From positions 1 to 63,963 of the forward strand of contig JBGTLE010000184.1 in assembly GCA_041744295.1 (NCBI GenBank): 63,963 nt of DNA, given 5' to 3'. The translations under genes were made by a program, and so were the position numbers. Positions 4,524-61,861 of this stretch are shown in pieces. How positions within the stretch are numbered: position 1 is the first letter of the stretch; each line of letters opens with the position of its first letter. Under the pieces are notes generated by a model. It did no database searches, had not been told where the DNA came from, and saw nothing but the letters and a program-made list of their open reading frames with translations. The stretch is from Pyrinomonadaceae bacterium. GTDB taxonomy: Bacteria; Acidobacteriota; Blastocatellia; Pyrinomonadales; Pyrinomonadaceae.

Positions 4524-4526
4524 ATA

Positions 4527-6219: not shown

Positions 6220-6236
6220 TTCTCTCCTAACGACCC

Positions 6237-12582: not shown

Positions 12583-12585
12583 AGC

Positions 12586-24122: not shown

Positions 24123-24134
24123 AATAACGAAGGC

Positions 24135-24229
24135 AGTTTCGAGTTTCGAGTTTCGAGTTTTCGCCTTGGAGCTGCACTCTCACGAGTGGATTGAACAAAC
24201 TTGAAACTCGAAACTAGAAACTCGAAACT
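24135..24229. repeat. TTTCGAG-family hairpin
   Basis: agtttcgagtttcgagtttcgagttttcg (24135-24163) faces aacttgaaactcgaaactagaaactcgaaact (24198-24229). It lies just 3' of the TPR/protease gene stop. Confidence 0.9.
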
Positions 24230-24241
24230 CCCTCCTGGTGC

Positions 24242-25926: not shown

Positions 25927-26595
25927 TTATTTCAAGATTTCTCCCGTTTTCATCGACCAAAGAACCAGATCTAACTCGTCAAAGTCGATCTTCACTTCCT
26001 TTGCAAAGTCACCCAGCCTTTTCTCCGTTTCCAAATACCGCGATCTGGTGGCAGGTGGCTTGCTCGATTCCGTCAAGCCCAAATCGGCGAGACACCGCAT
26101 GACGTGTTTATCCAGAATCGCGTAACCCTTCAATCCGATGTTGCGCAGGAAGTGACTGGACTCTTTGTAACCCAACCCTTTAATTCGGGTTTCCTGGGCC
26201 AGCCAATCGCGACGATCGAGCGGATCTGAAAAACTTTCCAGCTGCTTGCGCAAACGCATTCGGCAGTGGCTCTGCAAGTAATCGCGAGTACTCACGATGT
26301 AAGCAGGACGAGCATTTGGAAAGCGATGCGCTCCGGCTTGCTTCAGCGCCGCGACCATCTGGTCCTTGCCGCCGTGCTTCAAGAAAGGCTTTACCGCTTC
26401 GACCGATTTGATTCCCATTCGCGCCGATGCGCCCGCGGTAAAAATGCAGAAGACCAGCTCCTCCCACAAGCGATCGTCCGACCCGGAAAGCCAGACATCG
26501 CTGAACTCGGCGAGCCTTGCTCGAATCAATCGCCGTCGCGTCTGATGCACGGCGCATATGCTTTCAATGTTAACCGGCTGGTGGTTGCTGCTCAC
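25927..26595 (-). CDS. N-glycosylase/DNA lyase (Ogg2-type 8-oxoguanine DNA glycosylase)
   Basis: HhH-GPD type motifs: LWEELVFCIFTAGASA ... IKGLGYKESSHFLRNIGLKGYAILDKHV. Confidence 0.7.
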   Translation of the reverse strand: MSSNHQPVNIESICAVHQTRRRLIRARLAEFSDVWLSGSDDRLWEELVFCIFTAGASARMGIKSVEAVKPFLKHGGKDQMVAALKQAGAHRFPNARPAYIVSTRDYLQSHCRMRLRKQLESFSDPLDRRDWLAQETRIKGLGYKESSHFLRNIGLKGYAILDKHVMRCLADLGLTESSKPPATRSRYLETEKRLGDFAKEVKIDFDELDLVLWSMKTGEILK

Positions 26596-28311: not shown

Positions 28312-28328
28312 CTGGCATGATCAGTGCT
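28312..28328 (+). promoter_or_regulatory. putative sigma-54 (-24/-12) promoter of pilin module 1
   Basis: CTGGCATGATCAGTGCT matches YTGGCACGrNNNTTGCW. GG (28314-15) and GC (28326-27) have the canonical spacing. It lies ~60 nt upstream of ATG 28388. Confidence 0.55.
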
Positions 28329-28387
28329 GTAGCTCACTGGCCCGCGGACCGCCCTGGTCCGAACACTCGCAACAGTGAGTTACCCAC

Positions 28388-29038
28388 ATGCGAAATGCAG
28401 CACTTGCTCCCCAAAGCTCTCACGACGGATTCTCAGTAGTAGACATGATGGTCGTGCTCGCCCTACTCGGCGTGCTGTCGGCGCTTGCCATCCCGCAACT
28501 AATCGGACAACGCCGACTGATCCGTTCCTCTGCAATCTACCGAGAGGTTCTCACCCAACTTCGCTTCGCCAGACAGCAGGCCATGACTCAACGTCAGGTC
28601 TTCACCTTCCAGTACGTCAACTCCACCAAACAAATCTTGATCATCGATCACAACAACAACCCTGACGCCAGCGGCGTCACCGTGCTTACGGATGCTGCCT
28701 ATCCAAACACGGCCGGCAGCGTGGTGGTCAGCTCCATCTCTCTGAGTTCGGGGGGAGTCCCGACGTCTGAACTAACTTATGGAATCCCGGCCGGACTGCC
28801 GACCGGCGCGCTCGCCGATGGCGTCTCGCGAACCGGTCTAAGCTCAGGCCAATTGAATATCTCGTTCCAACCTGACGGTTCGGTTGTGGACATTAACGGC
28901 AATCCTGTCAATCGGGCATTGTTCTTCTATAACAACAAAGCCGCGAGTCACACCGCCTCCGCAGTTTCAGTTTTAGGTGCTGCCGGTCGAGTCAAATTGT
29001 GGAGGTACGACGAGAGTGTCAACCGGTATGTTGAATAG
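28388..29038 (+). CDS. type IV pilin-like minor pilin, GspH/FimT-like (module 1)
   Basis: Class III signal MRNAALAPQSSHDG|FSVVDMMVVLALLGVLSALAIP, with Asp at +5. This is followed by a GspH/FimT-type helix ...LTQLRFARQQAMT. Confidence 0.75.
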   Translation: MRNAALAPQSSHDGFSVVDMMVVLALLGVLSALAIPQLIGQRRLIRSSAIYREVLTQLRFARQQAMTQRQVFTFQYVNSTKQILIIDHNNNPDASGVTVLTDAAYPNTAGSVVVSSISLSSGGVPTSELTYGIPAGLPTGALADGVSRTGLSSGQLNISFQPDGSVVDINGNPVNRALFFYNNKAASHTASAVSVLGAAGRVKLWRYDESVNRYVE

Positions 29039-29618
29039 CACTTGTCGCCAACGCTGCACACGAACTCGAGAGCAGGGATTTTCTTTGCTTGAGATGGTTG
29101 TCGCGGTGAGTCTACTTACCGGCGGCCTGCTGGCCGTCGCGTCCACCATCGGCTACGCGTTGATGGTGAGCAATAGCGGCCGAGGGATCACAAACTCAAA
29201 GCTATTGATCGTCTCAGTTCTTGAACAAATGGAGACTCTACGAAACACACAAACGCTGACGTACGGTCAGATCGCTAACGAAGGCGGCGTTGACGACACC
29301 GGCGCTGACTGGAACTTTGTTGGTTTTCCAGCCGAGTTTCTGCCGGTCTCAAACAATCCTGGACCAGACGGGATCTTCGGGACGCGTGACGATTTGATCG
29401 ATGCCGGCGCCGATCTGCAGTTCGGGACTGCCGACGATTTCACCAATCCGCTCTTCGCACGCACAAACGTGAGTCGCCAAATTTTGATCACAGAATTGAG
29501 CCCGCAACTGAAACGCATCGAGGTGATACTGCGTTACTCGCCCGAAGGCGGCGAGTCACGCGAACTCTCCGGTGTCAGTTACTTAAACGACGATGCTCAC
29601 AGCAACTACATTCGCTGA
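29028..29618 (+). CDS. type IV pilin-like minor pilin, PilV/GspI-like (module 1)
   Basis: ATG 29028 overlaps the upstream stop by 11 nt. Prepilin motif EQG|FSLLEMVVAVSLLTGGLLAV, then ...SVLEQMETLRN. Confidence 0.7.
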   Translation: MLNSTCRQRCTRTREQGFSLLEMVVAVSLLTGGLLAVASTIGYALMVSNSGRGITNSKLLIVSVLEQMETLRNTQTLTYGQIANEGGVDDTGADWNFVGFPAEFLPVSNNPGPDGIFGTRDDLIDAGADLQFGTADDFTNPLFARTNVSRQILITELSPQLKRIEVILRYSPEGGESRELSGVSYLNDDAHSNYIR

Positions 29619-29637
29619 TTGGCAACTGATTCTCAAG

Positions 29638-30693
29638 ATGCACTCCAACTCAAACAAAGCGGCCCAGGCAGGATTTACCGTTGTCGAGATGATCATCGCG
29701 GTTACGGTGATGGCAATCATTGCCGGAGCAGTGTTCGCCTTAATGAGAGACTCGATGAGGGTGGCAAGTACTACGTATGAATTGACTGACGCGCAGCAGA
29801 GTTTGCGCACGGCCCAGGAGTACATCAATCGGGACCTGATGAACGCCGGCGATGCTTTGACGAGCATCAACAACATAAAGGTCCCGCGAAATTTTGTTAC
29901 GAATTACCTTACTGTCGCACCTGTTGCCGATCCGAGCACTCCCGGTTACGTCAATCTGGCGCTGCTGACGTCTGACAATGATGCCCCTGCCGGTACGGTA
30001 GTGCTTGGCGCAACCCCTACAACGCTTCATTCAAATCCACAGACCGACCGCATAACTATTCTCCAGATTGACCCATCGTTTACGCCCGTCGCATTAGCTG
30101 CAACGGCCATCAACCTAAACGGCAATCAGATTACGGTCACCAGTACGGCGCCGTATCGGGTTGGCGAAGTCTATTTCCTAACCTCATCCGTGGGCGGAGT
30201 GTTTGGAACAATAACCGGCCTCCCGTCGGGCCCGCCGCGGATCACCTTCAATAATGGCGACGCACTTGGTTTGAACGTTAGTGGCGTGGGTGGCCAGATA
30301 AATACAATTTCTGCGAGCCGAACCCTGCCGACCTCGCTGATGCGCGTCAAGATTATTCACTATTACGTGACTTCTGCCGCCCTACTCATGCGTCGCGTCT
30401 TTGGTGTGCGCGGAACTTCCTACAGCGACAGTTTGATCGCCGAGCATGTCATCGGTCTTCAGTTCCGTTATTTCCTCAGTCTAAGAGACGCCGGTGGCAA
30501 TGTAATGCAACCGGTTGAGCAGTTAACGACTTCCACCCAGCAAGTTGCTATTAACCAGGTAGAAGTTTCAGTCGCTGTCGAAACCCCGCACGCGCTGCAG
30601 ACAGGCGCGCGCCAACCTCTTTCGATGACTACGAGCACCAGCGTGCGCAACATGCAGTTCAAGACTGCATTGCAGCCTAGTGCCGGAGGGTAA
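29638..30693 (+). CDS. type IV pilin-like minor pilin, PilW/GspJ-like (module 1)
   Basis: Leader MHSNSNKAAQAG|FTVVEMIIAVTVMAIIAGAVFAL, followed by ...AQQSLRTAQEYINRDLMNAG, which is typical of PilW/GspJ. Confidence 0.7.
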   Translation: MHSNSNKAAQAGFTVVEMIIAVTVMAIIAGAVFALMRDSMRVASTTYELTDAQQSLRTAQEYINRDLMNAGDALTSINNIKVPRNFVTNYLTVAPVADPSTPGYVNLALLTSDNDAPAGTVVLGATPTTLHSNPQTDRITILQIDPSFTPVALAATAINLNGNQITVTSTAPYRVGEVYFLTSSVGGVFGTITGLPSGPPRITFNNGDALGLNVSGVGGQINTISASRTLPTSLMRVKIIHYYVTSAALLMRRVFGVRGTSYSDSLIAEHVIGLQFRYFLSLRDAGGNVMQPVEQLTTSTQQVAINQVEVSVAVETPHALQTGARQPLSMTTSTSVRNMQFKTALQPSAGG

Positions 30694-30708
30694 CTGAGTT
30701 TCGCCATC

Positions 30709-33660
30709 ATGAAGATTCTTGCTCCCAACTCTCTTGTTGATCCTCTGAATCGATCTCAGATCTCGCATTTAAGATCTCAAAAAGCAGTCGCACCATGTCG
30801 AGTCGACAGCGAGCGCGGCAGCGCCCTGGTGGCAGCGATCTTTATTCTGGCTCTCTTGGGCGTGATCGCCATGACCGTGCTGGGTGTGGTCACGACCGAG
30901 ACGAGAATTGCTGGAAGTGATTTGGAGCGCACAAAAACCTTCTACGCGGCTGCGTCTTCGATGGAGAAGATGACCAGCGATTTTAGCGCGCTATTTTCAC
31001 GAACGTCGCGGCCTACGGTGGCCCAACTCAACTCGATCGCCGCCTCGTCACCACCGGAGCTAAGCACCGAAGGTTTCTCCTTATATCCACAGTCGATCAG
31101 ACTCGACGTTGCAACTCTGGATTCGATGCGTCTGACTCAGGGAATTGCATCCACCGCGTATCCCAGCGTCACTATCCCGTCTGGCCCCTTTGCCGGCCTG
31201 ACGGCCAGCGTGGCGCCTTTCATTCTCGAAACCACCGCGACGTCCAACTTAAACGCACAGGTCCGCCTGAAAAGGCAGATCAACAACTATCTGATTCCCA
31301 TATTTCAATTCGGAATGTTTAGCAACGGCGACCTTGAGGTGTATCCGGGACCTGAGTTCACATTCAACGGGCGAGTCCACGCGAATGGCAATTTGTATCT
31401 GAGCGGGAATGTAACCTTCCTTGCCAAGGTCACAACCGCCAATGAAGCTGTCCGTCAGCTAGTACGCAATGGCTCTCCGCACGCTGGGGTAGTCAATTTT
31501 CAAGTAGGCGTCACAAAAGTTCAGATGACACTGGGCAGCGTATTCCTGGGTCCAAACTTGCCCGGTGCGACGCCCGGCACGCGAGGTTACTTTCCGGGCT
31601 CTCCGGCAGGAACGTCGAACACGACGTGGAAAGACACCTCGGTCGCGTCTCCCCTACTGGGTATTCCGAATCAGTTTGGCGGCCAGTTGCTGACGCGGAC
31701 GACCGGCATCTCGCCGTTGTTGCTTCCGATGCAGCTCGACGGCAATCCACCTCGCGAAATTATCAAGCGACGCATGCCGAACGACGACATCACGCTCAGC
31801 GAGTCTCGTTACCACACAAAAGCACAAATTCGAATTCTGATTGACGACGAAGCCGCTTCCGGAACCGATAGCTCTGGAATTCCTGCCGGCAGGGGCGTGG
31901 CCTTATCAACTTTCAATCCGGTGCCGCTTCCCGCGGGTGCAACCGCTTCAGGCGGCGGACGGGCGCTCTGGCGAATATCTGACGCCAGTGCTTATTTGGA
32001 CACGGCTGCGAGTTGCCTTCTGCAAGGGAGTAGCTCTGGCCCACAGGCTGACACGGTGCGGGGAATCAGGGGTTCGTCAGCTTCGTCATCGAACGGCGTT
32101 GCCATTCCAGCCGGCGCCGGAATCTCGGGCCGAATACTTATCGAGATCATTGCCGCCAATGGCTCGGCTTTTGACGTAACCACTCAGGTGCTGAGCATGG
32201 GAATGACGGTAGGCGAGCCGAATGCAATCGTACATCTGCAACGACCGTTGTGGGCGGCATACACGCAGGGCAGCAGAGATTCAACCGGTGGTAACGATTA
32301 TCTGACCTATCTGTTGAACAGCACGACCATTGCAGCCGATGGCGAGATAAAAGGCAACGGGGGTCATCCCACGCAGGACGGAACCTATGGTTTCTTGAAA
32401 AACCTGCAAGAGGACCCTGGCGGGAAGTTTCGCGAAGACACACCAGCCGCAGCCGGCGATTGGAACAGTATCGTTCCAATCAATATCTATAACGTTCGGG
32501 AAGGACGCATCACCACGGCCCTGGATGCAAACACGGTCTACGAGCGCGGCGTGATGAGCATCGTTGAACTTAACATGCGCAATCTCGCGCGCTGGGTTGA
32601 TGGCGTGTACGACGCGAACCTCCTCGCCGGGACGGGAGCAGTAAGTACGAATATTTCGGGCGCTGACGGATACATTGTCTACGTTTCTGATCGACGCGGC
32701 GACAAAGTTAAGTCTGAGCGGGACGCCGTCGGCGCAATCATGACTACCAACGGTCTGGTCGATAATGAAGACATCTATGGACCCAACACAACGTTGGACG
32801 CCGGAGAAGATGTCATCGATTTCGGCGTTGATGGTTCGGGTACCCCGAAGCTGGGAACACTGCAGCGCGACCTTACCGAGTTGCCCGATCCCGCTGCGCT
32901 CGCGGGAACCTCAGGTGCTGACAGGCTCGGTCGAGCCAACAGCGTTGCCGCCTGGCAAAACACCAATAACTACTTCCGAAGGTCCGTCAGAGTCTTCAAT
33001 GGAGAGGATCTTGTAATCAGCGGTGCGGCCGACAAACTATCGGCCACCAAAGGAATCACCATTTCGTCTGAGAACATGATCTACGTCTGGGGAAACTTCA
33101 ACACCACCGGGATCAACGGTCAGCCTGCTGGCGCCGCAACTCTTAACGATCCAACTCAGACTTTCTTCTACACAGGCAATCAGGTGCCTTCTTCGATCGT
33201 TGTTGACGCGTTCTTCCCCTTATCGAAAACCTGGTTCGATAGTTCGAGTTCTTTGTATCCCGACAATTTGGGCAAACGTATAGCGGATTTGAACGTGCCG
33301 GCTGTTACCGCTGAGACGGCGGTCAGGGCGGGCATTATTGCGGGAAATAACCTCTCCGCTCTTTCCGGACTTCCGGACGGAGGCAACAGCGCGTCAAACG
33401 AGTCACGCCTTAACGGAGGCATGCATAATTTCCCTCGCTTTCTGGAGAACTGGCGCGCGCGCTGGAACTTTGTCGGATCGCTTATCCCTCTCTATAACTC
33501 GACGCAAGCGGTCGGGCAATACAACTCAAGCTCGACTATCTATAGTCCGCCAACTCGGAATTGGGCTTTCGATTCGACCTTTCAGGATCCGAATCGCCTG
33601 CCTCCCGGTACTCCTCAGTTCCAGTATGTGCAGCCGACGGCTTTCCGCCAGATTTTCTAA
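30709..33660 (+). CDS. 983-aa PilX_N-domain protein (GspK/PilX-position subunit, putative tip/adhesin)
   Basis: The N-terminus ...SERGSALVAAIFILALLGVIAMTVLGVVTTETRIAGSDLERTKTFYAAASSMEKM matches the PilX N-terminal pattern and has no G|FxxxE. About 900 further residues are rich in Gly/Asn/Thr. It is the fourth gene of the module. Confidence 0.65.
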   Translation: MKILAPNSLVDPLNRSQISHLRSQKAVAPCRVDSERGSALVAAIFILALLGVIAMTVLGVVTTETRIAGSDLERTKTFYAAASSMEKMTSDFSALFSRTSRPTVAQLNSIAASSPPELSTEGFSLYPQSIRLDVATLDSMRLTQGIASTAYPSVTIPSGPFAGLTASVAPFILETTATSNLNAQVRLKRQINNYLIPIFQFGMFSNGDLEVYPGPEFTFNGRVHANGNLYLSGNVTFLAKVTTANEAVRQLVRNGSPHAGVVNFQVGVTKVQMTLGSVFLGPNLPGATPGTRGYFPGSPAGTSNTTWKDTSVASPLLGIPNQFGGQLLTRTTGISPLLLPMQLDGNPPREIIKRRMPNDDITLSESRYHTKAQIRILIDDEAASGTDSSGIPAGRGVALSTFNPVPLPAGATASGGGRALWRISDASAYLDTAASCLLQGSSSGPQADTVRGIRGSSASSSNGVAIPAGAGISGRILIEIIAANGSAFDVTTQVLSMGMTVGEPNAIVHLQRPLWAAYTQGSRDSTGGNDYLTYLLNSTTIAADGEIKGNGGHPTQDGTYGFLKNLQEDPGGKFREDTPAAAGDWNSIVPINIYNVREGRITTALDANTVYERGVMSIVELNMRNLARWVDGVYDANLLAGTGAVSTNISGADGYIVYVSDRRGDKVKSERDAVGAIMTTNGLVDNEDIYGPNTTLDAGEDVIDFGVDGSGTPKLGTLQRDLTELPDPAALAGTSGADRLGRANSVAAWQNTNNYFRRSVRVFNGEDLVISGAADKLSATKGITISSENMIYVWGNFNTTGINGQPAGAATLNDPTQTFFYTGNQVPSSIVVDAFFPLSKTWFDSSSSLYPDNLGKRIADLNVPAVTAETAVRAGIIAGNNLSALSGLPDGGNSASNESRLNGGMHNFPRFLENWRARWNFVGSLIPLYNSTQAVGQYNSSSTIYSPPTRNWAFDSTFQDPNRLPPGTPQFQYVQPTAFRQIF

Positions 33661-33692
33661 AAATCTATGGGGGACGGCTTGTAAAAAGGTTT

Positions 33693-33728
33693 GCGCCCCA
33701 ACAACCCGAAAGCTGTGGGGCGCTTTTA
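33693..33728 (+). terminator. rho-independent terminator after pilin module 1
   Basis: GCGCCCCA (33693-33700), 15 nt, TGGGGCGC (33716-33723), followed by TTTTAC. Confidence 0.7.
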
Positions 33729-34012
33729 CCGTCCGATTCCGCATGCAGCGTGCGGCACCACACACGGGCGGACGATCTTTTCAGAAATGGAGTCAGCTAC
33801 ATTGGAGTTGTGCAAGTCTCACATCAAAGGAAAAGGTCAAAAGGAGCTGGGTTTCCAGAGAGCGTGCGACTTTTTCTTATCCCGTCGCCTGTTGTCGGCC
33901 AGGAACGAAGAAATTAGGAAACCGTCTTCCCTCATCGTTACTGAAGGTGACGCCGACCTTCGCAAGACCAGAAACCCCAGCGTTCATTCCCTTGTTTTTG
34001 GGGTGTTCACAG

Positions 34013-34029
34013 TTGGCATGACCGTTGCT
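34013..34029 (+). promoter_or_regulatory. putative sigma-54 (-24/-12) promoter of pilin module 2
   Basis: TTGGCATGACCGTTGCT gives TGGCAT-N5-TTGCT, with GG at 34015-16 and GC at 34027-28. It lies ~60 nt upstream of ATG 34090, which is preceded by GGAGGA. Confidence 0.65.
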
Positions 34030-34089
34030 AAAAAGGCTTCAGTACAGGTCCCGCCAGGATCTCTCAGGCGAAAGTGAATTGGAGGAACG

Positions 34090-35136
34090 ATGGCCGTCGA
34101 TCGAATCAAACTCAGAAATCGAAAGCATGAGCAGACTGGCTTCAGCATGGTTCAACTGCTGATTACAGTGGCCGTCGTGGCAATCGTTTCGGGCATAGCG
34201 GTGCTGGGTATCGCGTCAGCCCGTCAACGTATCAGGTTGACGAACTCATCGCGGCTATTGGCGAGTTATCTGGAGAAGGCCCGGGTAGATTCGGTGCGGC
34301 GCCATGCGCTGGCAACGGAAGAGATGTCAGCGGTAACACTGCTTAACAGTTTCTCTTACCGCGTGACAATGGACTTCGACGGGGATGGAACGCTTGAGAC
34401 TCGCAACATCACACTCGACGATGGCGTTGTGATCGCAACCAATCCTCTGCCACCGGCCATAACGTTTGATTGGCGAGGCAGACTGACTGGGACAACCGAG
34501 AACAAGATCAGCATAACTTTGCAATACGGCAACCTGGCATCAGACCAGCGCAGTATCGACGTGACGCGATCAGGCGACGTGACCATCGACAGTGATGTGT
34601 ACCTCGATGACGTTCCCAACGTAAATGTTAACGTCAGCGGCTTGACCGGCGTAGATTCAGGCTCCACCATAAACGGCAACAGCACCGCGACACCTACTCC
34701 GACGCCCACGCCGGAACCAACCCCAACGCCCTCGGTTACTCCAACTCCGACTCCAACTCCCACGCCGATACCGACGCCGACGCCAACTCCGACACCGACG
34801 CCGATACCGACGCCAACACCTACGCCGACTCCGACGCCTACGCCGACGCCGACGCCGACACCAACGCCGACACCGTCGCCAAGTCCTACTCCGTGCGTTG
34901 CGAACCCGACGCCGCCTTCTCTCTCAATTCGAAAGAACGGTGGCACGGGAACGGTGAGCTGGTCCGTCTCGAGCGGCAGCGTAAGCTTCAGTAGCGGGCC
35001 GAGCAACTTACAGGTGACGCAGACTGCGACCAACAACTTCTCCATCACTTCGCTCAACAACTCGCGCGGTGACTTTACGGCCGTCTTTAGCACACCGTGC
35101 GGCAATCGAAACTATGTTGTTAGCGTGACTAACTAG
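34090..35136 (+). CDS. modular GspH/FimT-like pilin with Thr-Pro stalk and C-terminal domain (module 2)
   Basis: Leader [17 protein letters not shown]|[18 protein letters not shown], with Gln at +5. The GspH-like helix is [17 protein letters not shown] ~68-aa (TP)n linker and an ~80-aa Cys...Cys C-terminal module follow. Confidence 0.75.
34690..34893 (+). repeat. in-frame ACNCCN hexanucleotide tract encoding the (Thr-Pro)n linker
   Basis: About 204 bp of degenerate acg-ccg / aca-ccg / act-ccg repeats read [32 protein letters not shown]...TPSPSPTP. Confidence 0.9.
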
Positions 35137-35163
35137 GTCAGCCTGAAACTGGAATAAAAACAG

Positions 35164-35607
35164 ATGCGCCAGAACTTTCGACAAACCGAAAAACAGGGTC
35201 AGGCAGGTTTCACGCTGCTGGAGACGACCATGGCTCTCGTAGTCATGATGATTGCCGGGCTGGGCATCGTTGCCGTGTTCTCTTTTGCGATCAAGAACAA
35301 TACCGGCGCGCGAGACAGGGCTTCTGCGATCGCGGTGGCCCAACAAGAGCTCGAGCGCTTGCGAAATCTGTCTTACAACGATGCTGCGCTAAACACTACC
35401 TCAACGCCACTAACATCCACGGTTGACAGTGGCGGTCGCTCTTTCACTCTTCGCACTACGATCACGACCGACGCAACGACCTCGCTAAAAACGATCCAGG
35501 TACAGGTTACGCCCGCCAGCGGCACCACCACCTGGGCGCTCGGCAGCGTCACGATAGTTTCTCAACGCGCGCCCTTCTCGCTCGGCGCCTACAGCGGTGG
35601 ACCGTGA
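35164..35607 (+). CDS. type IV pilin-like minor pilin, PilV/GspI-like (module 2)
   Basis: Leader MRQNFRQTEKQGQAG|FTLLETTMALVVMMIAGLGIVAVF, then ...AIAVAQQELERLRN. Confidence 0.75.
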   Translation: MRQNFRQTEKQGQAGFTLLETTMALVVMMIAGLGIVAVFSFAIKNNTGARDRASAIAVAQQELERLRNLSYNDAALNTTSTPLTSTVDSGGRSFTLRTTITTDATTSLKTIQVQVTPASGTTTWALGSVTIVSQRAPFSLGAYSGGP

Positions 35608-36311
35608 TGAAAGAAAATCAGAACATGCCGAACTCAAATAGAAACACTCAAGCCGGTTTCTCGCTGGTTGAACTAATAATAGCGATGTCGGTAACGCTCG
35701 TGATTGCCGGCATAGCCAGCACGCTGGTGGGAAGCTCATTCCGGTTGCGCGCTCGCGAAGATGTCCGCTCGGACGCGGTTGCGGATGCGCAACGTGCGCT
35801 CAATATCGTGTCCCGCGAAATAGCAAATTCGGGTTTCGGATTGATCGACAACGGAATAGTGCCGGGCGATACAAACGCGGTAGGCATTCGCTTTCGTTCG
35901 AACTTGAATGCCTATACGCGCGACGCGTCCGGGAATGCGGTGGCCGGTAGCAGCACCATTTCTGAAGCTGATGAAGATATCAAGTACTCGATGTACAACG
36001 ATATCGAGGCGAACCGGCATTATCTGGTTCGTTACGATGTAATCCTGGGAGCCGGAGATTCGCGAAATGGCACCACCGTCCTGGCAAATCGCATCGATAG
36101 TTTCAACCTGCGCTATTTCGATTCGACCGGCACTGAACTGGACGTCGCAACTAATCCAAATCTATTGGTGAGTGCCTGGAAAGTGAGAATCACAGTGAGT
36201 GTGAATCTTCCTGAGCAAGGTACCGTCGGCTCGCCCGGCTATCAACCGGCGTCGTCGCTGGGACTTACTTCTGACGTCGTCCTGCGCAATGCCAGTCAGA
36301 TAACCTTTTAA
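35607..36311 (+). CDS. type IV pilin-like minor pilin, PilW/GspJ-like (module 2)
   Basis: ATG 35607 overlaps the upstream TGA. Motif ...NRNTQAG|FSLVELIIAMSVTLVIAGIAS, then ...DAQRALNIVSREIANSG. Confidence 0.75.
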   Translation: MKENQNMPNSNRNTQAGFSLVELIIAMSVTLVIAGIASTLVGSSFRLRAREDVRSDAVADAQRALNIVSREIANSGFGLIDNGIVPGDTNAVGIRFRSNLNAYTRDASGNAVAGSSTISEADEDIKYSMYNDIEANRHYLVRYDVILGAGDSRNGTTVLANRIDSFNLRYFDSTGTELDVATNPNLLVSAWKVRITVSVNLPEQGTVGSPGYQPASSLGLTSDVVLRNASQITF

Positions 36312-36338
36312 CTCGACGTGCGGAGAAGGAATTCGATC

Positions 36339-37610
36339 ATGGAAAACACCAGACCACTTGGGCTTTCGGCAGACCGGGGAGATGAGCGTGGCGCTGCGTT
36401 AGTCACCAGCATTTTGATCTCGACACTGTTGTTGACGGTTGCGGGTGCTGTAATTTTGACGAGTGGCATGTCTGCTACCACTGCCATTGAATCTACTGCT
36501 GAAGTCCAGGCCTACTACGGCGCAGAATCCGGCTTGGAGTCGACGCTGAACGTGTTGCGCGGTAACGTCGCACCAGTAGCGGGTGGTAGTGGGCAGAGAA
36601 TGGGATTTCGCAACGCCGTCGATACCAGCAAGGCAAATCATCCAAACGATCATTCCACCAGGTCGAGCCTGTCCAGGTGGCTGCCATATGGAGCCAACAG
36701 TCGAGTTACTCCCGCGGGCGCAAATTTTTCCTATGCCGTTGCCATCAGCGACCCTGATGATCCAACCGGAGCCCAACTCGCGGATGCAAGCTATCGGCCG
36801 ACTCGGCTAGTGGTCCAATCCACCGGCTACGGTCCGAACGGATCGGTAAAGCGGATGGAGATGGTGATCCAGAAGACGGAATTTGACTTTAATCCAAATG
36901 CGATGCTGCTAATGCGAGGCGCAGAAAGTGGCATCAAAATGAACTTCGACATTGGCAGCAGTAATTCGAAGTACTATTCCGGGCACGACAATGCCGGCGT
37001 TGAAGGCAACTTGCCGACATTTGGCGTTACTTCGGATGGAGATGCAACGGCGGCCAATGAGGCAATCACTAAGGGCAGCACCGTGGCAAACGAAAAGGTG
37101 GCTAAGATAGGCGTCGGATCCCTGCCCTCGTTTCTGCAGACCACGGAAGGTCCAACCGGCGCGCGAGCCTTCCTTAACGACATGCAGGCAATCGCTCGAA
37201 GCATGGGCCGCTACTACAACTCGTTTAGTGGCTACGCAGGTACTACGGCTTCCCCGAAATTCACCTTTGTTAATGGAGACTGCACGCTGGAGGGTGGGGC
37301 CGGAATGCTGGTGGTTACTGGTGATCTTGTCTTGAGTGGCAATCCTAGTTTCAACGGAATCATCCTCGTTCTCGGAGAGGGCACCATTAATCGAAACGGC
37401 GGCGGCAATGGCAACATCTACGGAACGATTTACGTTGCCAGGTTTGCCCGCTCGTGGCCCGCCAGTGAGAACGGTAACCCGCATCCGTTCCTCGCCCCAA
37501 GCTTCTATACCAACGGCGGCGGTACTGCTGAGCTGCGCTACGACTCGGTAGCGGTGCAAGCAGGCAAAGACGTTCTGGGCACTATTGTGCGAGACATTCG
37601 CGAGTTCTAG
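36339..37610 (+). CDS. PilX_N-domain protein (GspK/PilX-position subunit, module 2)
   Basis: ATG 36339 follows GGAGAAGGA. The N-terminus DERGAALVTSILISTLLLTVAGAVILTSGMSATTAIESTAEVQAYYGAESGLE fits PilX_N. There is a C-terminal G-rich beta-like repeat (LVVTGDLVLSGNPSFNGIILVLGEGTINRNGGGNGNIYGTIYVA). Confidence 0.7.
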   Translation: MENTRPLGLSADRGDERGAALVTSILISTLLLTVAGAVILTSGMSATTAIESTAEVQAYYGAESGLESTLNVLRGNVAPVAGGSGQRMGFRNAVDTSKANHPNDHSTRSSLSRWLPYGANSRVTPAGANFSYAVAISDPDDPTGAQLADASYRPTRLVVQSTGYGPNGSVKRMEMVIQKTEFDFNPNAMLLMRGAESGIKMNFDIGSSNSKYYSGHDNAGVEGNLPTFGVTSDGDATAANEAITKGSTVANEKVAKIGVGSLPSFLQTTEGPTGARAFLNDMQAIARSMGRYYNSFSGYAGTTASPKFTFVNGDCTLEGGAGMLVVTGDLVLSGNPSFNGIILVLGEGTINRNGGGNGNIYGTIYVARFARSWPASENGNPHPFLAPSFYTNGGGTAELRYDSVAVQAGKDVLGTIVRDIREF

Positions 37611-37651
37611 ACCTGGTGGCGAACGGCTGCAGACGGATGTGGAGTCAAGCA

Positions 37652-38158
37652 ATGATGGGTACCACTACTACCGGAAAGAGTGGCGTCCAGTCAGGCTTTA
37701 CGATTATTGAGCTGCTAATCGTGCTCGCCATGATGTTTGTAGTCACCGGCTTTCTGGTGGTCGAGATAGTCCAGGCTCGCCAGGCGATGACCAGAACAAC
37801 CGCCGCGCTCGAGCTGGTCTCTTACTTCGAAAAGGCCCGCTTGGATTCCGTTCGTCGACATCCGGACACAACCGCATTGATGGCCCAGATCGCAATACTC
37901 AACGCTAAATATTACAGCGTGAGTATCGACTCCGATCGCGATGGCCATCTTGATGCTCCGCGCGTGATAAACCTGCCCGCTGGTTCCAATCTGTCGTTTA
38001 ACGGCCCGTTCCCTAGAACAATCTATTTTGATTGGCGCGGCATGACAGTCGACTCAAAGGGCACTGTTGTCACACCAGAAACCGTGAGCATCGCAAACTC
38101 CTACGGCGTTTCAACCATTCGTGTGGCCAGCTCCGGACAAGCGACAATCGAACGATAA
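37652..38158 (+). CDS. type IV pilin-like minor pilin, second GspH/FimT-like paralog (module 2)
   Basis: Leader MMGTTTTGKSGVQSG|FTIIELLIVLAMMFVVTG. YFEKARLDSVRRHP is paralogous to [14 protein letters not shown] in the 34090 gene. The start could also be 37616 or 37637. Confidence 0.7.
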   Translation: MMGTTTTGKSGVQSGFTIIELLIVLAMMFVVTGFLVVEIVQARQAMTRTTAALELVSYFEKARLDSVRRHPDTTALMAQIAILNAKYYSVSIDSDRDGHLDAPRVINLPAGSNLSFNGPFPRTIYFDWRGMTVDSKGTVVTPETVSIANSYGVSTIRVASSGQATIER

Positions 38159-38191
38159 TTAAGGAATTCGAGTTGGGTGGTTCGCAGCTGA

Positions 38192-38267
38192 AAGGTGGGT
38201 TTACCCCCGCTCCAAGCGACATTACAGACCTGCCTGAAGTCAAGATCAGCGGGGGTAAACCCACCTT
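38192..38267. repeat. perfect 20-bp inverted repeat after pilin module 2
   Basis: aaggtgggtttacccccgct (38192-38211) pairs with agcgggggtaaacccacctt (38248-38267), with a 36-nt loop. It is probably a terminator or REP-like hairpin. Confidence 0.85.
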
Positions 38268-38418
38268 CCTGACATGCAAATTTCCCTACCGTGACTCACT
38301 CATTTGAAATGCCCTCCACTTCAGAAGCTTCTTGACACTGTTGGAAGAACAATCAATTATTGCTTGCCGTTGTCGAAAATCTTCCACAACGCAGTGAGCC
38401 AGACTTCTTCCTTCAAAA

Positions 38419-39783
38419 ATGCCTGACATCCTACTCGTCGAAGACAAGGAAAGCCTGCGAAAGGTTCTGCGGCTGACTTTGGAAAGTGCCGGCTACTCCG
38501 TCACCGAGGCCGCCGATGCGAAGATCGCTTTAGCGGCGATCGCGAGCGCTCCACACAAGTTGATTTTGACCGATCTCCGCATGCCGCATGGTTCCGGACT
38601 CGACGTGCTGCGCGCCTCGCAAAGCGCTGACACTGACGTGCCGGTGGTGGTGATGACCGCGTTTGGATCAATCGACGAGGCCGTCCAGGCAATGAAAGAC
38701 GGGGCGCACGATTTTCTCCAAAAGCCCGTCGACTCAAATCACTTATTGCTCCTGGTGGGCCGCGCGCTTGAGCAGGCGCGGCTGCGAAATGAGAACGTTC
38801 TCCTCCGCGAGGAGTGGTCTAACCGCTACGGCTTTCCGCGCATCATCGGCGAGTCAGAAGCAATCAAACGAGCTGTTGGCGAAGCACAGCGTGTGGCAAC
38901 CACTGAGGCGACGGTGTTGCTGCTGGGGGAATCGGGAACCGGCAAAGAGCTCTTTGCGCGCGCCGTTCACCATCTTTCAAACCGGCGCGATAAACCCTTC
39001 GTCGCCATCAACTGCGCCGCCATTCCTGAAACATTGATTGAGAACGAACTGTTCGGCCACGAACGTGGTTCGTTTACGGGCGCGACTGATCGCCGGCAAG
39101 GCAAGTTTGAACTGGCATCCGGCGGCACAGTTTTCCTTGATGAGATTGGGGAACTGCCGCTGTCGGTCCAGGGGAAACTGCTTCGCGTAATCGAGGAACG
39201 GGTAGTCGATCGCATTGGCGGACGTACACCAATACCCGTGGACATTCGCATCGTGGCAGCGACAAATAAAGATTTGAAAGCCGCGGCTGAGAACGGCGAG
39301 TTTCGCGGTGATCTTTTCTTTCGACTCGCAGTCTTCCCGATCGTGATCCCACCGTTACGTGATCGCGACGACGACATCATCTTGCTCGCCAAACACTTTT
39401 CAGCGCAACTCGGAAGAGAATTGCGACGGCGCGACGCCCATTTGAGCGACGCGGGCATTCAGGCGTTACGCACGCATCACTGGCCCGGCAACGTCCGGGA
39501 ATTGGAGAACGCCATCGAGCGGGCATGCATTCTTTCAGATACTCTGGTACTCGAACCGAAAGACCTGGGTTTGTCACACGATTCGGAAGTGCCGAAGGGC
39601 CTGCGGAATATCGATCTTACCGGCTCACTTTCAGACGTGGCCCAGCGGGCGATTCGCGAGGTCGAACGCGCCAAAATCCAGGAAGCACTAAAGCTCAATG
39701 ACGGAAACAAAAACCGCACGGCAGAAGAGCTGGGCGTGAGTTACAAGACATTGCTTACAAAATTGAAAGACTACGATCTCTGA
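38419..39783 (+). CDS. sigma-54-dependent response regulator (NtrC family; PilR-like context)
   Basis: Receiver domain (ILLVEDK...LILTDLRMP), AAA+ domain (LLLGESGTGKELFARAVH, GSFTGA loop, ...RVIEER) and C-terminal Fis HTH (NKNRTAEELGVSYKTLLTKLK). Confidence 0.9.
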   Translation: MPDILLVEDKESLRKVLRLTLESAGYSVTEAADAKIALAAIASAPHKLILTDLRMPHGSGLDVLRASQSADTDVPVVVMTAFGSIDEAVQAMKDGAHDFLQKPVDSNHLLLLVGRALEQARLRNENVLLREEWSNRYGFPRIIGESEAIKRAVGEAQRVATTEATVLLLGESGTGKELFARAVHHLSNRRDKPFVAINCAAIPETLIENELFGHERGSFTGATDRRQGKFELASGGTVFLDEIGELPLSVQGKLLRVIEERVVDRIGGRTPIPVDIRIVAATNKDLKAAAENGEFRGDLFFRLAVFPIVIPPLRDRDDDIILLAKHFSAQLGRELRRRDAHLSDAGIQALRTHHWPGNVRELENAIERACILSDTLVLEPKDLGLSHDSEVPKGLRNIDLTGSLSDVAQRAIREVERAKIQEALKLNDGNKNRTAEELGVSYKTLLTKLKDYDL

Positions 39784-40054
39784 TACAGATGGACGATTCC
39801 TCCAACACCGATCAGCCTCCAGAATCAGATCGAGCCAAACGTCGCTCAACTTCGCGAGCAGACCTTGCTTCATCCGATCCGGAACCTTCCTTTGATTTTC
39901 CTCAGCAATTTCATCAAAAAGTGGTTTTTCACGGCGAAGAAAAATATTCTTGGTTTTTTCTGGAGAACCTCAGCCATTGGCTCTTTAGTTTAGGTATCCT
40001 GGAAACGGAAGGTGGCGCAGCGGCAAGTGGCGGTGGCGGCCGCCCTTTTTGTAC

Positions 40055-40189
40055 AGGATTAAAGGATTCTCAGAATTTACGGAAAATCCCTTAACTCATT
40101 CGCCAGATCTGAAAAATCCTTCTAATACTGCAGAATCCGGCCGAATCCTGCGAAATCGTGTAAATCCAGTCCGATTGACCACATTAATC
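40055..40189. repeat. GGATT / AATCC short-motif cluster
   Basis: aggattaaaggatt (40055-40068) is followed by six spaced AATCC(N) copies (aaaatccc, aaaatcct, agaatccg, cgaatcct, taaatcca, ttaatcct) up to 40189. Confidence 0.6.
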
Positions 40190-40213
40190 CTCGCCCGTAT
40201 CATCCGAAGCGCG

Positions 40214-48293: not shown

Positions 48294-48330
48294 TCTCAGA
48301 TCTCAGATCTCAGATCTGAGATTTGAGATT
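48294..48330. repeat. TCTCAGA/TCTGAGA heptamer hairpin (bidirectional terminator candidate)
   Basis: Three TCTCAGA units are followed immediately by TCTGAGA and TTTGAGA. The hairpin occupies almost all of the 42-bp spacer between convergent tsaD and qor. Confidence 0.9.
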
Positions 48331-49312: not shown

Positions 49313-49624
49313 TAGTTTCTAGTTTTTAGTTTCGAGTTTTTAGTTTCTAGCTTTGCGTCTCTGGTTCTGATTCTGGTTTCGAGTCATGTATTTGTCGACT
49401 ATCAGAGATGGCATGTTCAGGACATGAAGTCAGTACCACCTCGCGGTAGCGGGTGGGCCCGTGGCAGATGGGAGCGCTCAATTATCAACAGCCCACCCGC
49501 TACCGCACGGTGGTACTGACTTCATGTTCCCAGTACTAACGCTTGATCGAGAATTCAACCGCAAACGAAAGCCCCGAACGCTACACTCACGAACTCGAAA
49601 CTTGAAACTCGAAACTTGAAACTT
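49313..49624. repeat. nested palindrome: TTTCGAG/TTTCTAG-family outer arms around a 36-bp inner inverted repeat
   Basis: Outer arms are tagtttctagtttttagtttcgagtttttagtttctag (49313-49350) and cgaactcgaaacttgaaactcgaaacttgaaact (49590-49624). Inner arms are catgaagtcagtaccacctcgcggtagcgggtgggc (49423-49458) and gcccacccgctaccgcacggtggtactgacttcatg (49491-49526). Confidence 0.9.
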
Positions 49625-61794: not shown

Positions 61795-61861
61795 CTGTTA
61801 ATTATTGCCTCGTTTCGGTGTCGTGGGGAGGATGCCAGCCTATCACACCGGTCAGCGAAAG

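Follow-up and report, generated by a model that had tools for sequence, protein, structure and literature searches.

Two tandem minor-pilin cassettes in a Pyrinomonadaceae genome as probable priming and tip sets of a type IVa pilus encoded elsewhere

Two adjoining gene sets in an acidobacterial genome probably encode two core minor-pilin priming and tip sets, in which a large PilX-type protein stands in for PilY1, for a type IVa pilus whose machinery lies elsewhere. Both would be of the FimU/FimT-PilV-PilW-PilX type, which in type IV pili corresponds to GspH-I-J-K. At the inner membrane, the members of each set would come together in a small complex that initiates major-pilin polymerisation and afterwards remains at the filament tip; the machine served would be of the retractile type IVa kind, with its genes in another part of this Pyrinomonadaceae genome. 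The Glu5-less subunit (M1X or M2X) would cap each complex, its large, beta-rich C-terminal module serving as plug and adhesin, the role of PilY1 in Proteobacteria and Myxococcus; M2X would bring a different, compact module compared with M1X. Module 2 would add a Gln5 pilin with an extra C-terminal domain (M2H) and a FimT/FimU-like paralogue (M2H2), and both units would be transcribed from sigma-54 promoters.

The window, i.e., the whole stretch of DNA analysed and the scope of all searches within it, comprises positions 1-63,963 of contig JBGTLE010000184.1 (assembly GCA_041744295.1), forward strand. The source is a soil acidobacterium of the family Pyrinomonadaceae (Acidobacteriota). The following features were assigned:

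28313..28328, +, P1, sigma-54-type -24/-12 motif (TGGCATGATCAGTGCT) upstream of module 1, match to TGGCAYGNNNNKTGCW
28388..29038, +, M1H, FimU/FimT/GspH-like minor pilin, 216 aa, G|FSVVD; Pfam GspH 27.2 bits vs cutoff 21
29028..29618, +, M1V, PilV/GspI-position minor pilin, 196 aa, G|FSLLE; TIGR02532 16.8 bits vs cutoff 16.3
29638..30693, +, M1W, PilW/GspJ/HpsC-position minor pilin, 351 aa, G|FTVVE; N_methyl 25.1 bits vs cutoff 21.2
30709..33660, +, M1X, large PilX_N/GspK-type cap protein, 983 aa, 'ERG|SALV', no Glu5, HpsA-like C-terminal region
33693..33728, +, intrinsic-terminator-like hairpin after module 1 (GCGCCCCA...TGGGGCGC + TTTTA), -20.3 kcal/mol, z = -2.5
34014..34029, +, P2, sigma-54-type -24/-12 motif (TGGCATGACCGTTGCT) upstream of module 2, match to TGGCAYGNNNNKTGCW
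34090..35136, +, M2H, modular GspH/FimT-like minor pilin, 348 aa, G|FSMVQ (Gln5); weak N-terminal pseudopilin matches only
35164..35607, +, M2V, PilV/GspI-like minor pilin, 147 aa, G|FTLLE; PilV TIGR02523 E = 5e-6, under cutoff
35604..36311, +, M2W, PilW/GspJ-position minor pilin, 235 aa, G|FSLVE; N_methyl 28.2 bits vs cutoff 21.2
36339..37610, +, M2X, compact PilX_N/GspK-type cap protein, 423 aa, 'ERG|AALV', no Glu5, beta-rich inserted domain
37616..38158, +, M2H2, second GspH/FimT/FimU-like minor pilin, 168-180 aa, G|FTIIE; gspH TIGR01708 E = 5.4e-6
38192..38267, +, perfect 20-nt inverted repeat with a 36-nt loop after module 2, -56.4 kcal/mol, z = -5.2
38419..39783, +, NtrC-family sigma-54 activator, REC-AAA+-HTH_8, 454 aa; Sigma54_activat E = 1e-70

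The anatomy given in the first-pass annotation, two units in H-I-J-K-like order with class III signals and sigma-54 motifs, is correct. All nine ORFs lie on the plus strand where they had been placed (28388-38158), with gaps of -11 to +27 nt inside each module. The M1X stop and the M2H start are separated by 429 nt, close to the 430 bp that had been claimed; a sigma-54 motif precedes each unit, and the terminator proposed between them does fold as a hairpin, with 8 G+C-rich pairs followed by TTTTA. Longer frames start at 28977 for M1V, at 29593 for M1W and at 36318 for M2X (430 aa), and the M2H2 ORF spans at most 180 aa, or 168 aa from the ATG at 37652. As had been reported, seven proteins carry a class III signal: across the whole 64 kb, G|F-[ST]-x-x-[E/D/Q] followed by a hydrophobic helix occurs in exactly seven ORFs, all of them in this region. 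Residue 5 is Glu in five of them, Asp in M1H and Gln in M2H. The fourth-position proteins, said to lack the signal, indeed share a GspK/PilX_N-type 'ERG|[SA]ALV' N-terminus in which both Phe+1 and Glu5 are missing. Outside this region, Pfam scans of the window detected only housekeeping genes and no PilB/C/D/M-Q/T or Gsp genes, in line with the earlier statement that no core pilus machinery is nearby, and the window contains no major pilin gene.

Pilin or pseudopilin models were matched above cutoff by M1H (GspH) and by M1V, M1W, M2W and M2H2 (N_methyl or TIGR02532; for TIGR02532, 20.4 bits in M2W and 18.9 bits in M2H2 vs cutoff 16.3). Most of the position-specific PilV, PilW and GspI/J assignments are matches far under the curated cutoffs and mainly to the N-terminal helix; the sub-threshold PilV, GspI, GspJ and HpsC matches agree with gene position. 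Such matches were obtained for M1H (TIGR01708 gspH, E = 2.5e-7), M1V (PilV model TIGR02523, E = 2.5e-4), M1W (HpsC, E = 3.9e-6; GspJ models, E = 3e-4 to 3e-3) and M2V (gspI TIGR01707, E = 1.7e-5; Pfam T2SSI, E = 0.009), all under cutoff. The Verru_Chthon cassette proteins A-D (TIGR02596-TIGR02600) are alike in having four genes, one for a very large and three for prepilin-type proteins. Proteins A, C and D gave weak N-terminal matches of 11-19 bits vs cutoffs of 70-332 bits, with no homology past the N-terminal helix.

M1X itself scores 17.3 bits with PilX_N, under cutoff, and among 41 diverse members of its family PilX_N is matched by 23 (best E = 4e-11), NCBIfam HpsA by all 41 (best E = 1e-20) and T2SS_GspK by ten. 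The HpsA match reaches 52 bits, far under the 400-bit equivalog cutoff, and lies mostly in the C-terminal motif region; M1X is a distant homologue of cyanobacterial HpsA/PilX_EPS. The family comprises 2,820 clusters at 50% identity, and homologues in Pyrinomonadaceae are 59-79% identical. For M2X 1,552 homologues were found, of which the best 120 listed are 64-84% identical and include several named 'PilX N-terminal domain-containing' by NCBI. In a profile-profile comparison M2X aligned with the M1X family at 96% probability over 64 columns, the PilX_N segment only. The AF2 model of M2X (pLDDT 79.6) combines a long helix and a pilin sheet with a beta-rich domain and ends in one last strand. 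M1X, modelled with low overall confidence (pLDDT 53), has a helix at its N-terminus, a beta-sheet and short rungs of beta structure. For neither protein did the PDB, including ComZ, yield a significant match by structure or sequence; the best fold match of M2X, to an ice-binding-protein beta-solenoid, is weak (E = 0.097).

In M2H a Pro/Thr linker joins the pilin module to a C-terminal domain of about 85 aa that contains two Cys and has no Pfam match. Gln5 is kept in 9/10 orthologues, and the linker and C-terminal domain are kept in two related loci (L080, L081). M2H and M2H2 had been taken for recent paralogs. However, their pilin modules are only 40% identical over 160 aa, and since the two proteins sit in two separate multi-species clades, one orthologous clade each, the duplication is ancient.

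Within the 64 kb, TGGCAYGNNNNKTGCW is matched only at 28313 and 34014, vs 0.06 matches expected, and 0/100 shuffles gave two. P1 and P2 have nearly the same core, and each precedes the cleavage-site codon of its module's first gene by about 115-125 nt. In related loci a GG-N10-GC motif (>=9/12, i.e., at least nine of twelve) occurs in a comparable place upstream of M1H in 26/65 cases vs 5% of random 300-nt windows, and in L002, L010, L011, L012 and L058 TGGCATG-N4-TTGCY or a close variant precedes the cleavage codon of the M2H orthologue by 120-135 nt. The same motif is also present directly upstream of the M2H ORF in L080 and L081; sigma-54 motifs are absent where module 1 directly follows module 2 or H2. 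A search for an upstream activator site common to P1 and P2 found none. The inverted repeat at 38192-38267 lacks a U tract and is possibly a 3' end or a stabiliser.

The regulator gene that follows has its own sigma-70-like promoter (38332-38360), and its product also contains Response_reg (E = 3e-26) and HTH_8 (E = 7e-13) domains. In related loci with the same syntenic slot this regulator is 76-87% identical and adjoins the modules. Most likely, this orphan NtrC-type response regulator activates P1 and P2. It scores under every NCBIfam equivalog cutoff, with the PEP-CTERM-box regulator (448 vs 503 bits) and AtoC as near misses, and may have other or additional targets because the PEP-CTERM-box regulator is its nearest curated model.

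Contrary to what had been assumed, the arrangement is common in this lineage and not exceptional. Module 1 is conserved across Pyrinomonadaceae and other Acidobacteriota, with more than 560 matches in species-level genomes, and is present in essentially all related loci. The H-V-W-X order is conserved in 76 related loci: M1H (orthologues 38-60% identical) is the first gene in every case, M1V the second in all, and the position of M1W is conserved. Module 2 (M2V orthologues 37-50%, M2W orthologues 44-49% identical) is also widespread as the usual occupant of the slot beside the highly conserved NtrC-type activator, and in some relatives its sole occupant. A gene of the PilT/PilU ATPase family directly adjoins module 1, and only module 1, in 19 of the 76 loci; four of the ATPases were tested and reached 479-493 bits vs the TIGR01420 cutoff of 319. 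In six relatives (L008, L010-L013, L031) M2H2 lies directly upstream of M1H, giving a FimT-FimU-PilV-PilW-PilX-like order. In L010-L012 module 2, H2, module 1 and pilT form one co-directional cluster in which the two modules are tightly packed and appear to belong to one operon behind a single sigma-54 motif. The first-pass proposal of tip or priming complexes for a machine encoded elsewhere fits the family matches, the conserved promoters and the PilT/PilU genes beside module 1 in relatives. The idea of alternative, separately controlled tips is overstated, given the apparently common operon of L010-L012 and the near-identical P1 and P2 cores in the window.

A cyanobacteria-like division, with module 1 priming long adhesive or motility pili and module 2 short dynamic DNA-uptake pili, would refine rather than exclude this explanation, and we consider it possible, if unlikely. 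A large HpsA-like set and a compact PilX set lie side by side, as do the cyanobacterial EPS and Com sets, pilT is confined to module 1, and module 2 has two GspH/FimT-like proteins, the Legionella FimT being reported as a DNA-binding competence pilin (PMC8897410). By this analogy module 2 may be of the Com type. However, M2X resembles neither ComZ nor other competence pilins in sequence or fold, the flanks examined contain no competence genes, and the modules look co-transcribed in L010-L012.

It is rather improbable that one or both modules form the pseudopilus of an Hps-like polysaccharide-export system, in which minor pseudopilins and an HpsA-like protein would push or guide exopolysaccharide through a PilQ/GspD secretin, instead of an adhesive pilus tip. 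Apart from the uniform HpsA matches of the M1X family, M1W matches HpsC and, weakly, HpsB, and M2V and M2W match HpsB or HpsC weakly; the regulator scores near the PEP-CTERM-box cutoff, and PEP-CTERM proteins and a MurJ-type flippase flank it in relatives. The Nostoc punctiforme genes hpsA-D were first described as encoding a membrane protein and pseudopilins that aid polysaccharide export (PMC6495340), and the piston role is still debated (PMC12475490), although later work reads the cyanobacterial HpsA-type set as a motility-pilus priming set (bioRxiv 10.64898/2026.02.12.705559). Against export stand also the HpsA score far under its cutoff, the retraction ATPase gene in 19 loci and the absence of glycosyltransferase or polysaccharide synthesis genes beside the modules in the window and the loci examined.

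A type II secretion system located elsewhere, with the modules encoding its GspH-I-J-K tip pseudopilins, is improbable: module 2 is the stronger candidate, with protein sizes nearer to GspH/I/J/K, and GspH, gspH, gspI, T2SSI and GspK N-terminal matches occur across both modules, but all type II-specific scores are far under the equivalog cutoffs, such cross-matches are expected because type IV minor pilins and type II pseudopilins are homologous, no gspG/C/D/E/F/L/M gene lies beside the modules in any locus examined, pilT does so in 19 loci, in L010-L012 module 2 is co-directional and tightly packed with module 1 and pilT, and the M2X model has a beta-rich insertion where GspK carries an alpha-helical domain.

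Two sets for a type IVa pilus remain the preferred reading, and known systems offer several parallels. GspH-GspI-GspJ-GspK show the same order of adaptor H, I-J core and Glu5-less K cap, with weak direct HMM matches; in contrast, gsp machinery is not adjacent here, pilT adjoins in relatives, and the GspK similarity of M1X and M2X is detectable in the N-terminal helix only. The Pseudomonas aeruginosa operon fimT-fimU-pilV-pilW-pilX-pilY1-pilY2-pilE is regulated by FimS-AlgR, not sigma-54. It shares the FimU-PilV-PilW-PilX order and the position of FimT directly upstream of FimU, compare H2 upstream of M1H in the six relatives, but combines a small PilX with PilY1. Thermus thermophilus ComZ/PilA2 (as cited in bioRxiv 10.64898/2026.02.12.705559) provide tip-associated pilins with a large inserted beta-solenoid in a system without PilY1; however, neither M1X nor M2X significantly matches Thermus structures in sequence or by Foldseek, the sole Thermus match being a non-significant one of 6qvf (TT_C0855) to the low-confidence M1X model.

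No characterised system of such composition had been known to the first-pass annotation; close analogues do exist. In Myxococcus xanthus three FimU-PilV-PilW-PilX (PF14341) + PilY1 clusters serve one machine (PMC7541494), and the NtrC-like HsfA differentially regulates two of them (PMC9109919). These clusters 1-3 are likewise paralogous sets with a Glu5-less PilX, work with a single major pilin and a single T4aP machine whose genes lie elsewhere, and are governed by an NtrC-family response regulator. Each comes with a PilY1 of its own that bears a type I signal peptide, whereas here PilY1 is absent, the PilX-position protein is large (983/423 aa), and the sets are in tandem with near-identical promoter cores. 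Cyanobacteria also have two core sets per genome with the machine encoded elsewhere, EPS (FimT-PilW-PilV-PilX_EPS; hpsA-D in N. punctiforme) and Com, in which PilX has an ice-binding-protein-like beta-solenoid and is a proposed PilY1 substitute, the large PilX_EPS being homologous to HpsA (bioRxiv 10.64898/2026.02.12.705559). The likeness extends to four-subunit priming sets without PilY1 and to a PilX that lacks Glu5 and has a bulky beta-rich module. The differences are the phylum, the modest HpsA match, the absence of hps glycosyltransferase genes in the window and loci examined, and the dependence of Nostoc hpsA-D on SigJ and SigF instead of sigma-54 promoters with an adjacent NtrC-type regulator. 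The two-cassette system is known in kind from other bacteria and common in this lineage, where it is undescribed, and its two module sets parallel the Myxococcus clusters and the cyanobacterial EPS/Com sets.

Nine tightly packed plus-strand open reading frames span 28388-38158 in two modules, M1H, M1V, M1W and M1X (module 1) and M2H, M2V, M2W, M2X and M2H2 (module 2), where H, V, W and X stand for the FimU/FimT/GspH-, PilV/GspI-, PilW/GspJ- and PilX_N/GspK-like positions. M1X (983 aa) has 756 scored homologues, the best 120 of which are 59-79% identical (79% for the closest relative among the matches listed, its own sequence aside), and M2X (423 aa) has 1,552, with the best 120 at 64-84% identity; the named matches are Pyrinomonadaceae MAGs (Acidobacteriota, Blastocatellia), which places the window in this family. 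An exact-sequence look-up of the window M1X in public assemblies gave no match. The large homologue counts, from hundreds to thousands, show that the open reading frames of both modules are real genes.

Every open reading frame of the window was scanned for prepilin signals, i.e., G/[hydrophobic]-[ST]-x-x-[E/D/Q] (slash, cleavage site) followed by a hydrophobic helix; a class III signal is defined by a short basic leader ending in Gly (-1), then a hydrophobic residue (+1), Glu5 and a hydrophobic helix of ~20 residues. Exactly seven convincing class III signals were found, all of them inside the module region.

Class III signals of the module proteins (motif, residue 5)
M1H: GFSVVD, Asp5
M1V: GFSLLE, Glu5
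M1W: GFTVVE, Glu5
M2H: GFSMVQ, Gln5
M2V: GFTLLE, Glu5
M2W: GFSLVE, Glu5
M2H2: GFTIIE, Glu5

The mature starts of the fourth-position proteins read ERG/SALVAAIFIL... (M1X) and ERG/AALVTSILIS... (M2X), which are N-termini of the PilX_N/GspK type with Gly at -1 and without Phe at +1 or Glu5. In pilins, position +1 is almost always Phe or Met; among M1H orthologues of the related loci L005-L063 (L numbers denote loci from other genomes) the residue following the predicted cleavage site is unusually variable (F, Y, H, R, T, W, V, L, M).

The TIGR02532 cutoff was passed by M1V, M1W, M2W and M2H2 and that of PF07963 (N_methyl) by M1W and M2W; the prepilin-domain scores of M1H, M2V and M2H on these two models were just below the cutoff or weak. 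Judged by class III signal and PF07963/TIGR02532, the seven signal-bearing module proteins are type IV pilin-like. M1H falls into the GspH/FimT/FimU family (PF12019, 27.2 bits vs. a cutoff of 21), and on the same model M2H2 scores 13.6 bits and M2H gives N-terminal matches only. On TIGR02523 (PilV, whole-protein cutoff 52.2 bits) M1V and M2V score 21.5 and 27.0, and on the GspI models M2V scores 25.2 vs. 44.35 bits (TIGR01707) and 16.6 vs. 25 (T2SSI, PF02501). Neither M1W nor M2W reaches the PilW/GspJ/HpsC cutoffs (TIGR01711, PRK08808, NF038304), with N-terminal matches only (M1W: HpsC 26.7 vs. 200 bits, GspJ 17.3 vs. 64.85; M2W: HpsC 16.7). The PilV, GspI, GspJ, HpsB/C and Verru_Chthon matches fit the gene positions, but all are far below the curated cutoffs and mostly confined to the N-terminal helix. 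Therefore, the H-V-W-X (H-I-J-K) identity is an assignment by gene order plus weak similarity, short of demonstrated family membership. Membership in a Verru_Chthon cassette was ruled out by scores far below the cutoff.

A sigma-54-type motif lies 5' of each module (P1 and P2), and an NtrC-type regulator gene (38419-39783, plus strand) follows module 2.

Predicted promoters and hairpins of the module region
28313: P1, 5' of module 1, TGGCATGATCAGTGCT, with the GG-N10-GC spacing of sigma-54 promoters
33693-33728: G+C-rich hairpin followed by TTTTA, 3' of M1X, -20.3 kcal/mol
34014: P2, 5' of module 2, TGGCATGACCGTTGCT, with the GG-N10-GC spacing of sigma-54 promoters
38192-38267: perfect 20-nt inverted repeat AAGGTGGGTTTACCCCCGCT with a 36-nt loop, -56 kcal/mol, z = -5.2
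38332-38360: the regulator's own sigma-70-like promoter

The pattern TGGCAYGNNNNKTGCW has only these two matches in 64 kb, P1 and P2, vs. 0.06 expected, each ~115-125 nt 5' of the codon for the cleavage site in the leading gene of its module. In related loci a motif of at least 9/12 is found before 26 of 65 M1H orthologues, 67-219 nt (mostly about 105-220) 5' of the equivalent codon, and one of at least 10/12 before 18 of the 65, compared to 5.0% and 1.3%, respectively, of random 300-nt windows. Among six loci with M2H orthologues, five have the motif between -120 and -135, and L080 and L081 carry a perfect-looking TGGCATG-N4-TTGCT directly 5' of the M2H reading frame. The motif is absent before M1H wherever M2 or an M2H2-type gene immediately precedes module 1 (L010, L011, and the second cassette in L013 and in L031), in keeping with a single long operon there. 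Taking GG and GC 10 nt apart within TGGCAC-N5-TTGCW, a position 5' of an operon and an available enhancer-binding protein as the criterion, P1 and P2 qualify as predicted sigma-54-dependent promoters, with positional conservation in relatives and an adjacent NtrC-type activator. When both promoter regions were searched for a shared activator site, the 8-mers they had in common did not exceed chance level, and they shared no palindrome. A third sigma-54-like motif, TGGCAGGTGGCTTGCT (26049-26064, plus strand, 11/12), is antisense within an Ogg-like gene ~700 nt 5' of a peptidase S13 gene and is probably a chance match.

Located between the M2H2 stop codon and the regulator promoter, the inverted repeat at 38192-38267 occurs nowhere else in the window and lacks a U tract; it could be a transcript end, a stabiliser or a protein-binding site. 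An Rfam scan of the window detected no riboswitch or sRNA in the leaders, and tRNA-Pro only. The regulator is 76-87% identical in loci with the same slot and scores near the cutoff for the PEP-CTERM-box response regulator (448 vs. 503 bits). About 10 kb 5' of module 1 the window encodes a TPR protein that ends in an HTH_8 domain of the Fis type and has no AAA+ domain (17130-18707, minus strand), and a similar one is encoded ~4 kb 5' of the isolated module 1 of L001 (2526-3875, minus strand); this neighbour may be a coincidence or a second regulator.

Elsewhere in the window, tandem heptamer repeats (e.g., GCTGTTC x16, CAGAGGT, GAGTTTC, CAGAATA) occupy many intergenic regions (802-883, 1776-1959, 4526-4605, 6114-6222, 12472-12586, 14934-15108, 15349-15519, 24131-24233, 48294-48329, 49313-49354, 49592-49624 and 61857-61977), often as two inverted arrays forming long hairpins with arms of up to 53 nt. 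These arrays are reminiscent of the STRR heptamers of cyanobacteria. The gene at 10709-12115 (plus strand) encodes a homologue (E = 5e-121) of glycoside hydrolase family 47 (class I alpha-mannosidase), a family that is mostly eukaryotic.

M2H and M2H2, which had been taken for a recent paralogue pair, are only 40% identical over 160 residues, and in a neighbour-joining tree each clusters with orthologues of other species. This topology places the duplication before those species and, together with the low identity, refutes a recent origin. In six relatives an M2H2-type gene is found directly 5' of M1H, resulting in the order FimT-FimU-PilV-PilW-PilX, which is known from Pseudomonas. The Gln5 of M2H (window 34138) is kept in nine of ten orthologues (loci concerned: L002, L010-L012, L058, L060, L080 and L081, besides the window), so that module 2 would hold two subunits without Glu5, M2X and M2H. 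In M2H, the pilin module is connected to a conserved two-Cys C-terminal domain of ~85 aa by a linker rich in Pro and Thr, for which the DNA (34688-34880) contains 12/18/24-nt repeats; no Pfam or family match was obtained for the two-Cys domain.

On its own, M1X scores 17.3 bits on PilX_N (PF14341, cutoff 25.5), and M2X has no Pfam match. For the family scans 41 diverse relatives that are only 29-38% identical to the window M1X were used, and 23 of them match PF14341 (best E = 4e-11); in addition, some M1X and M2X orthologues have precomputed PF14341 matches and are named PilX N-terminal domain proteins by NCBI. Although M1X alone is below threshold, these profiles make its family look clearly PilX_N-like. 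All 41 relatives also match the NCBIfam HpsA model (best E = 1e-20). M1X itself scores 51.8 bits (NF038301, E = 2.7e-14), below the equivalog cutoff of 400 bits, with the best stretch aligning residues 892-939 to model positions 1346-1397. A score that is sub-cutoff yet family-wide indicates a region homologous to HpsA, not an equivalog. T2SS_GspK is matched by 10 of the 41 (best E = 3e-9); on GspK NF037980 (cutoff 130 bits) M1X and M2X reach 15.1 and 14.0, over the N-terminal ~55 residues only.

The M1X family comprises 2,820 clusters at 50% identity (E <= 1e-3; 312 at E <= 1e-30) and is conserved in the N-terminal third and the C-terminal 400 residues, with a variable centre that contains a PA14 domain in four of the 41 relatives. 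Beyond the PilX_N segment it matched no dedicated Pfam model, and this segment is all that the M1X and M2X families have in common (hhalign probability 96%, 64 columns). The AF2 monomer model of M2X is good (pLDDT 79.6) and combines a helix of 58 residues and a sheet of three strands with a large beta-rich domain, which includes two helices, and a final strand. Its best PDB match in Foldseek is the solenoid of an ice-binding protein, which at E = 0.097 is weak and makes a solenoid reading of the model suggestive only. The model of M1X is poor (mean pLDDT 53, 40-sequence alignment), and as Foldseek gave no PDB match with E < 0.3 no fold was assigned. Profile searches of the M1X (alignments A1 and A2) and M2X (A3) families against PDB sequences returned zero matches and thus no sequence link to structures of ComZ, GspK, PilX or PilY1; the competence pilin ComZ was also absent from the top 50 Foldseek matches of M2X. 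A competence-type role for module 2 would be a speculative reading. PilY1/PilC models matched neither the module region nor the other products of the window. In the mechanism we propose, the large PilX-position proteins M1X and M2X would substitute for PilY1. Distant relatives of M1X share the consensus GEDVNxNGxLD (A2, M1X residues ~685-710), which resembles an EF-hand-like or PilY1-like calcium loop and is degenerate in the window M1X (GEDVIDFGVDG); in this alignment E700 is invariant and D701 nearly so.

A scan of one genome per species yielded more than 560 stretches encoding M1X relatives, almost all from Pyrinomonadaceae, Blastocatellia or Acidobacteriota MAGs, and the four-gene cassette was present in 76 of the 76 loci retrieved. 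The modules reside in a conserved slot with the flanks PIN - TPR/Asp-protease - Ogg - peptidase S13 on one side and NtrC-type regulator - YjeF - TsaE on the other, the content of which varies.

Content of the slot in related loci
L016, L019, L025, L052: module 1 only
L080, L081: module 2 only (H, V, W, X), directly before the regulator
L010-L012: M2-H2-M1-pilT
L013, L031: M1'-H2-M1
Window, L058, L060: M1 then M2
L008, L078: inverted variants

Several MAGs have at least two M1-type cassettes (L005/L014, L041/L044, L035, L037, L057). Together with the varied slot content this indicates that several minor-pilin sets are the norm in the lineage. The first-pass interpretation was largely right but overstated the novelty. 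An accessory island is ruled out by a G+C content that is flat over the region, hundreds of conserved orthologues of both modules and the conserved syntenic slot, and both modules are conserved types and not strain-specific accessories. A subclade with M1X ~50% identical (L021, L022, L024, L026, L027, L030, L032, L033, L035-L038, L054, L059, L064 and L073) has the permuted order H-V-X-W and a longer W (410-456 aa), without a detectable sigma-54 motif; L035 carries two tandem X genes. In the relatives compared (L002, L010, L016, L019, L080, L081) a MurJ-type flippase and often PEP-CTERM proteins are encoded between the regulator and yjeF, and pilT often follows M1X. In the window, which has no MurJ, PEP-CTERM or pilT gene, this gap (at 39784-40210) measures only ~0.3-0.4 kb.

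No gene for PilA, PilB, PilC, PilD, PilM-Q or PilT was found within the 64-kb window. Nine reading frames, seven signals, P1/P2 and a machinery-free window confirm the initial observation of two minor-pilin modules with sigma-54 motifs and no machinery nearby. In 19 of 76 related loci a gene for a PilT-type Walker A protein of 350-400 aa is close to module 1 (just 3' of M1X in 11, divergent 5' of M1H in six and same-strand 5' in two), and four of these genes tested scored 479-493 bits on TIGR01420 (PilT/PilU family type IVa pilus ATPase, cutoff 319). Of the evidence here, this adjacency argues most strongly that module 1 would serve a type IVa pilus rather than a T2SS. It also speaks, like the lack of glycosyltransferase neighbours in the loci examined, against the modules being an Hps-like polysaccharide piston, which we regard as unlikely even though slight support comes from the regulator, which nearly matches the PEP-CTERM-box regulator, and from the PEP-CTERM and MurJ neighbours in relatives. 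With pilT in this position and no gsp neighbours in the loci examined, T2SS pseudopilins are quite improbable. The type IVa assignment would extend to module 2 through L010-L012, where module 2 runs in the same direction as H2, M1 and pilT, is packed closely with them and is thereby tied to the same system.

A literature search found no paper on acidobacterial minor pilins or on such a system in Acidobacteriota, which are among the most abundant soil bacteria and whose surface appendages are almost unstudied. If the cassettes build pilus tips, M1X and M2X, both large and strongly conserved, are prime candidates for the attachment of Pyrinomonadaceae to particles, polymers and each other, and the sigma-54/NtrC link would couple attachment to an environmental signal. 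Tentatively, the design of one machine with two PilY1-less core complexes and solenoid-type PilX caps might be ancient and widespread beyond cyanobacteria, with the M1X family as a major unrecognised class of pilus-tip adhesins of soil Acidobacteriota, switched on via sigma-54 and an NtrC-type regulator, and with two Glu5-less subunits (M2X, M2H) in the module 2 tip complex. The latter, if true, would break with the H-I-J-K paradigm of a cap as the sole subunit without Glu5. The analysis extends the idea that a large PilX replaces PilY1 from cyanobacteria and Thermus to another phylum, and defines a large, distantly HpsA-related protein family without a domain model of its own.

Of the systems described so far, the cyanobacterial core sets and the clusters of M. 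xanthus come closest, and the window fits their kind. In cyanobacterial FimT-PilW-PilV-PilX sets, an ice-binding-protein-like solenoid on PilX is the proposed stand-in for PilY1, the large form PilX_EPS shares homology with HpsA, and EPS and Com sets prime different filaments from one machine (bioRxiv 10.64898/2026.02.12.705559). M. xanthus has three clusters of FimU, PilV, PilW, PilX (PF14341) and PilY1 for one machine (PMC7541494), two of which are differentially regulated by the NtrC-like HsfA (PMC9109919). Compared with these sets, the window belongs to another phylum, encodes no PilY1, resembles HpsA only distantly, and has sigma-54 promoter motifs, an orphan regulator linked to the modules and a modular pilin with Gln5. 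As several minor-pilin sets per machine are an already established principle, its value lies in breadth and not in a new mechanism, and the system is a phylum-level addition to a known kind of system.
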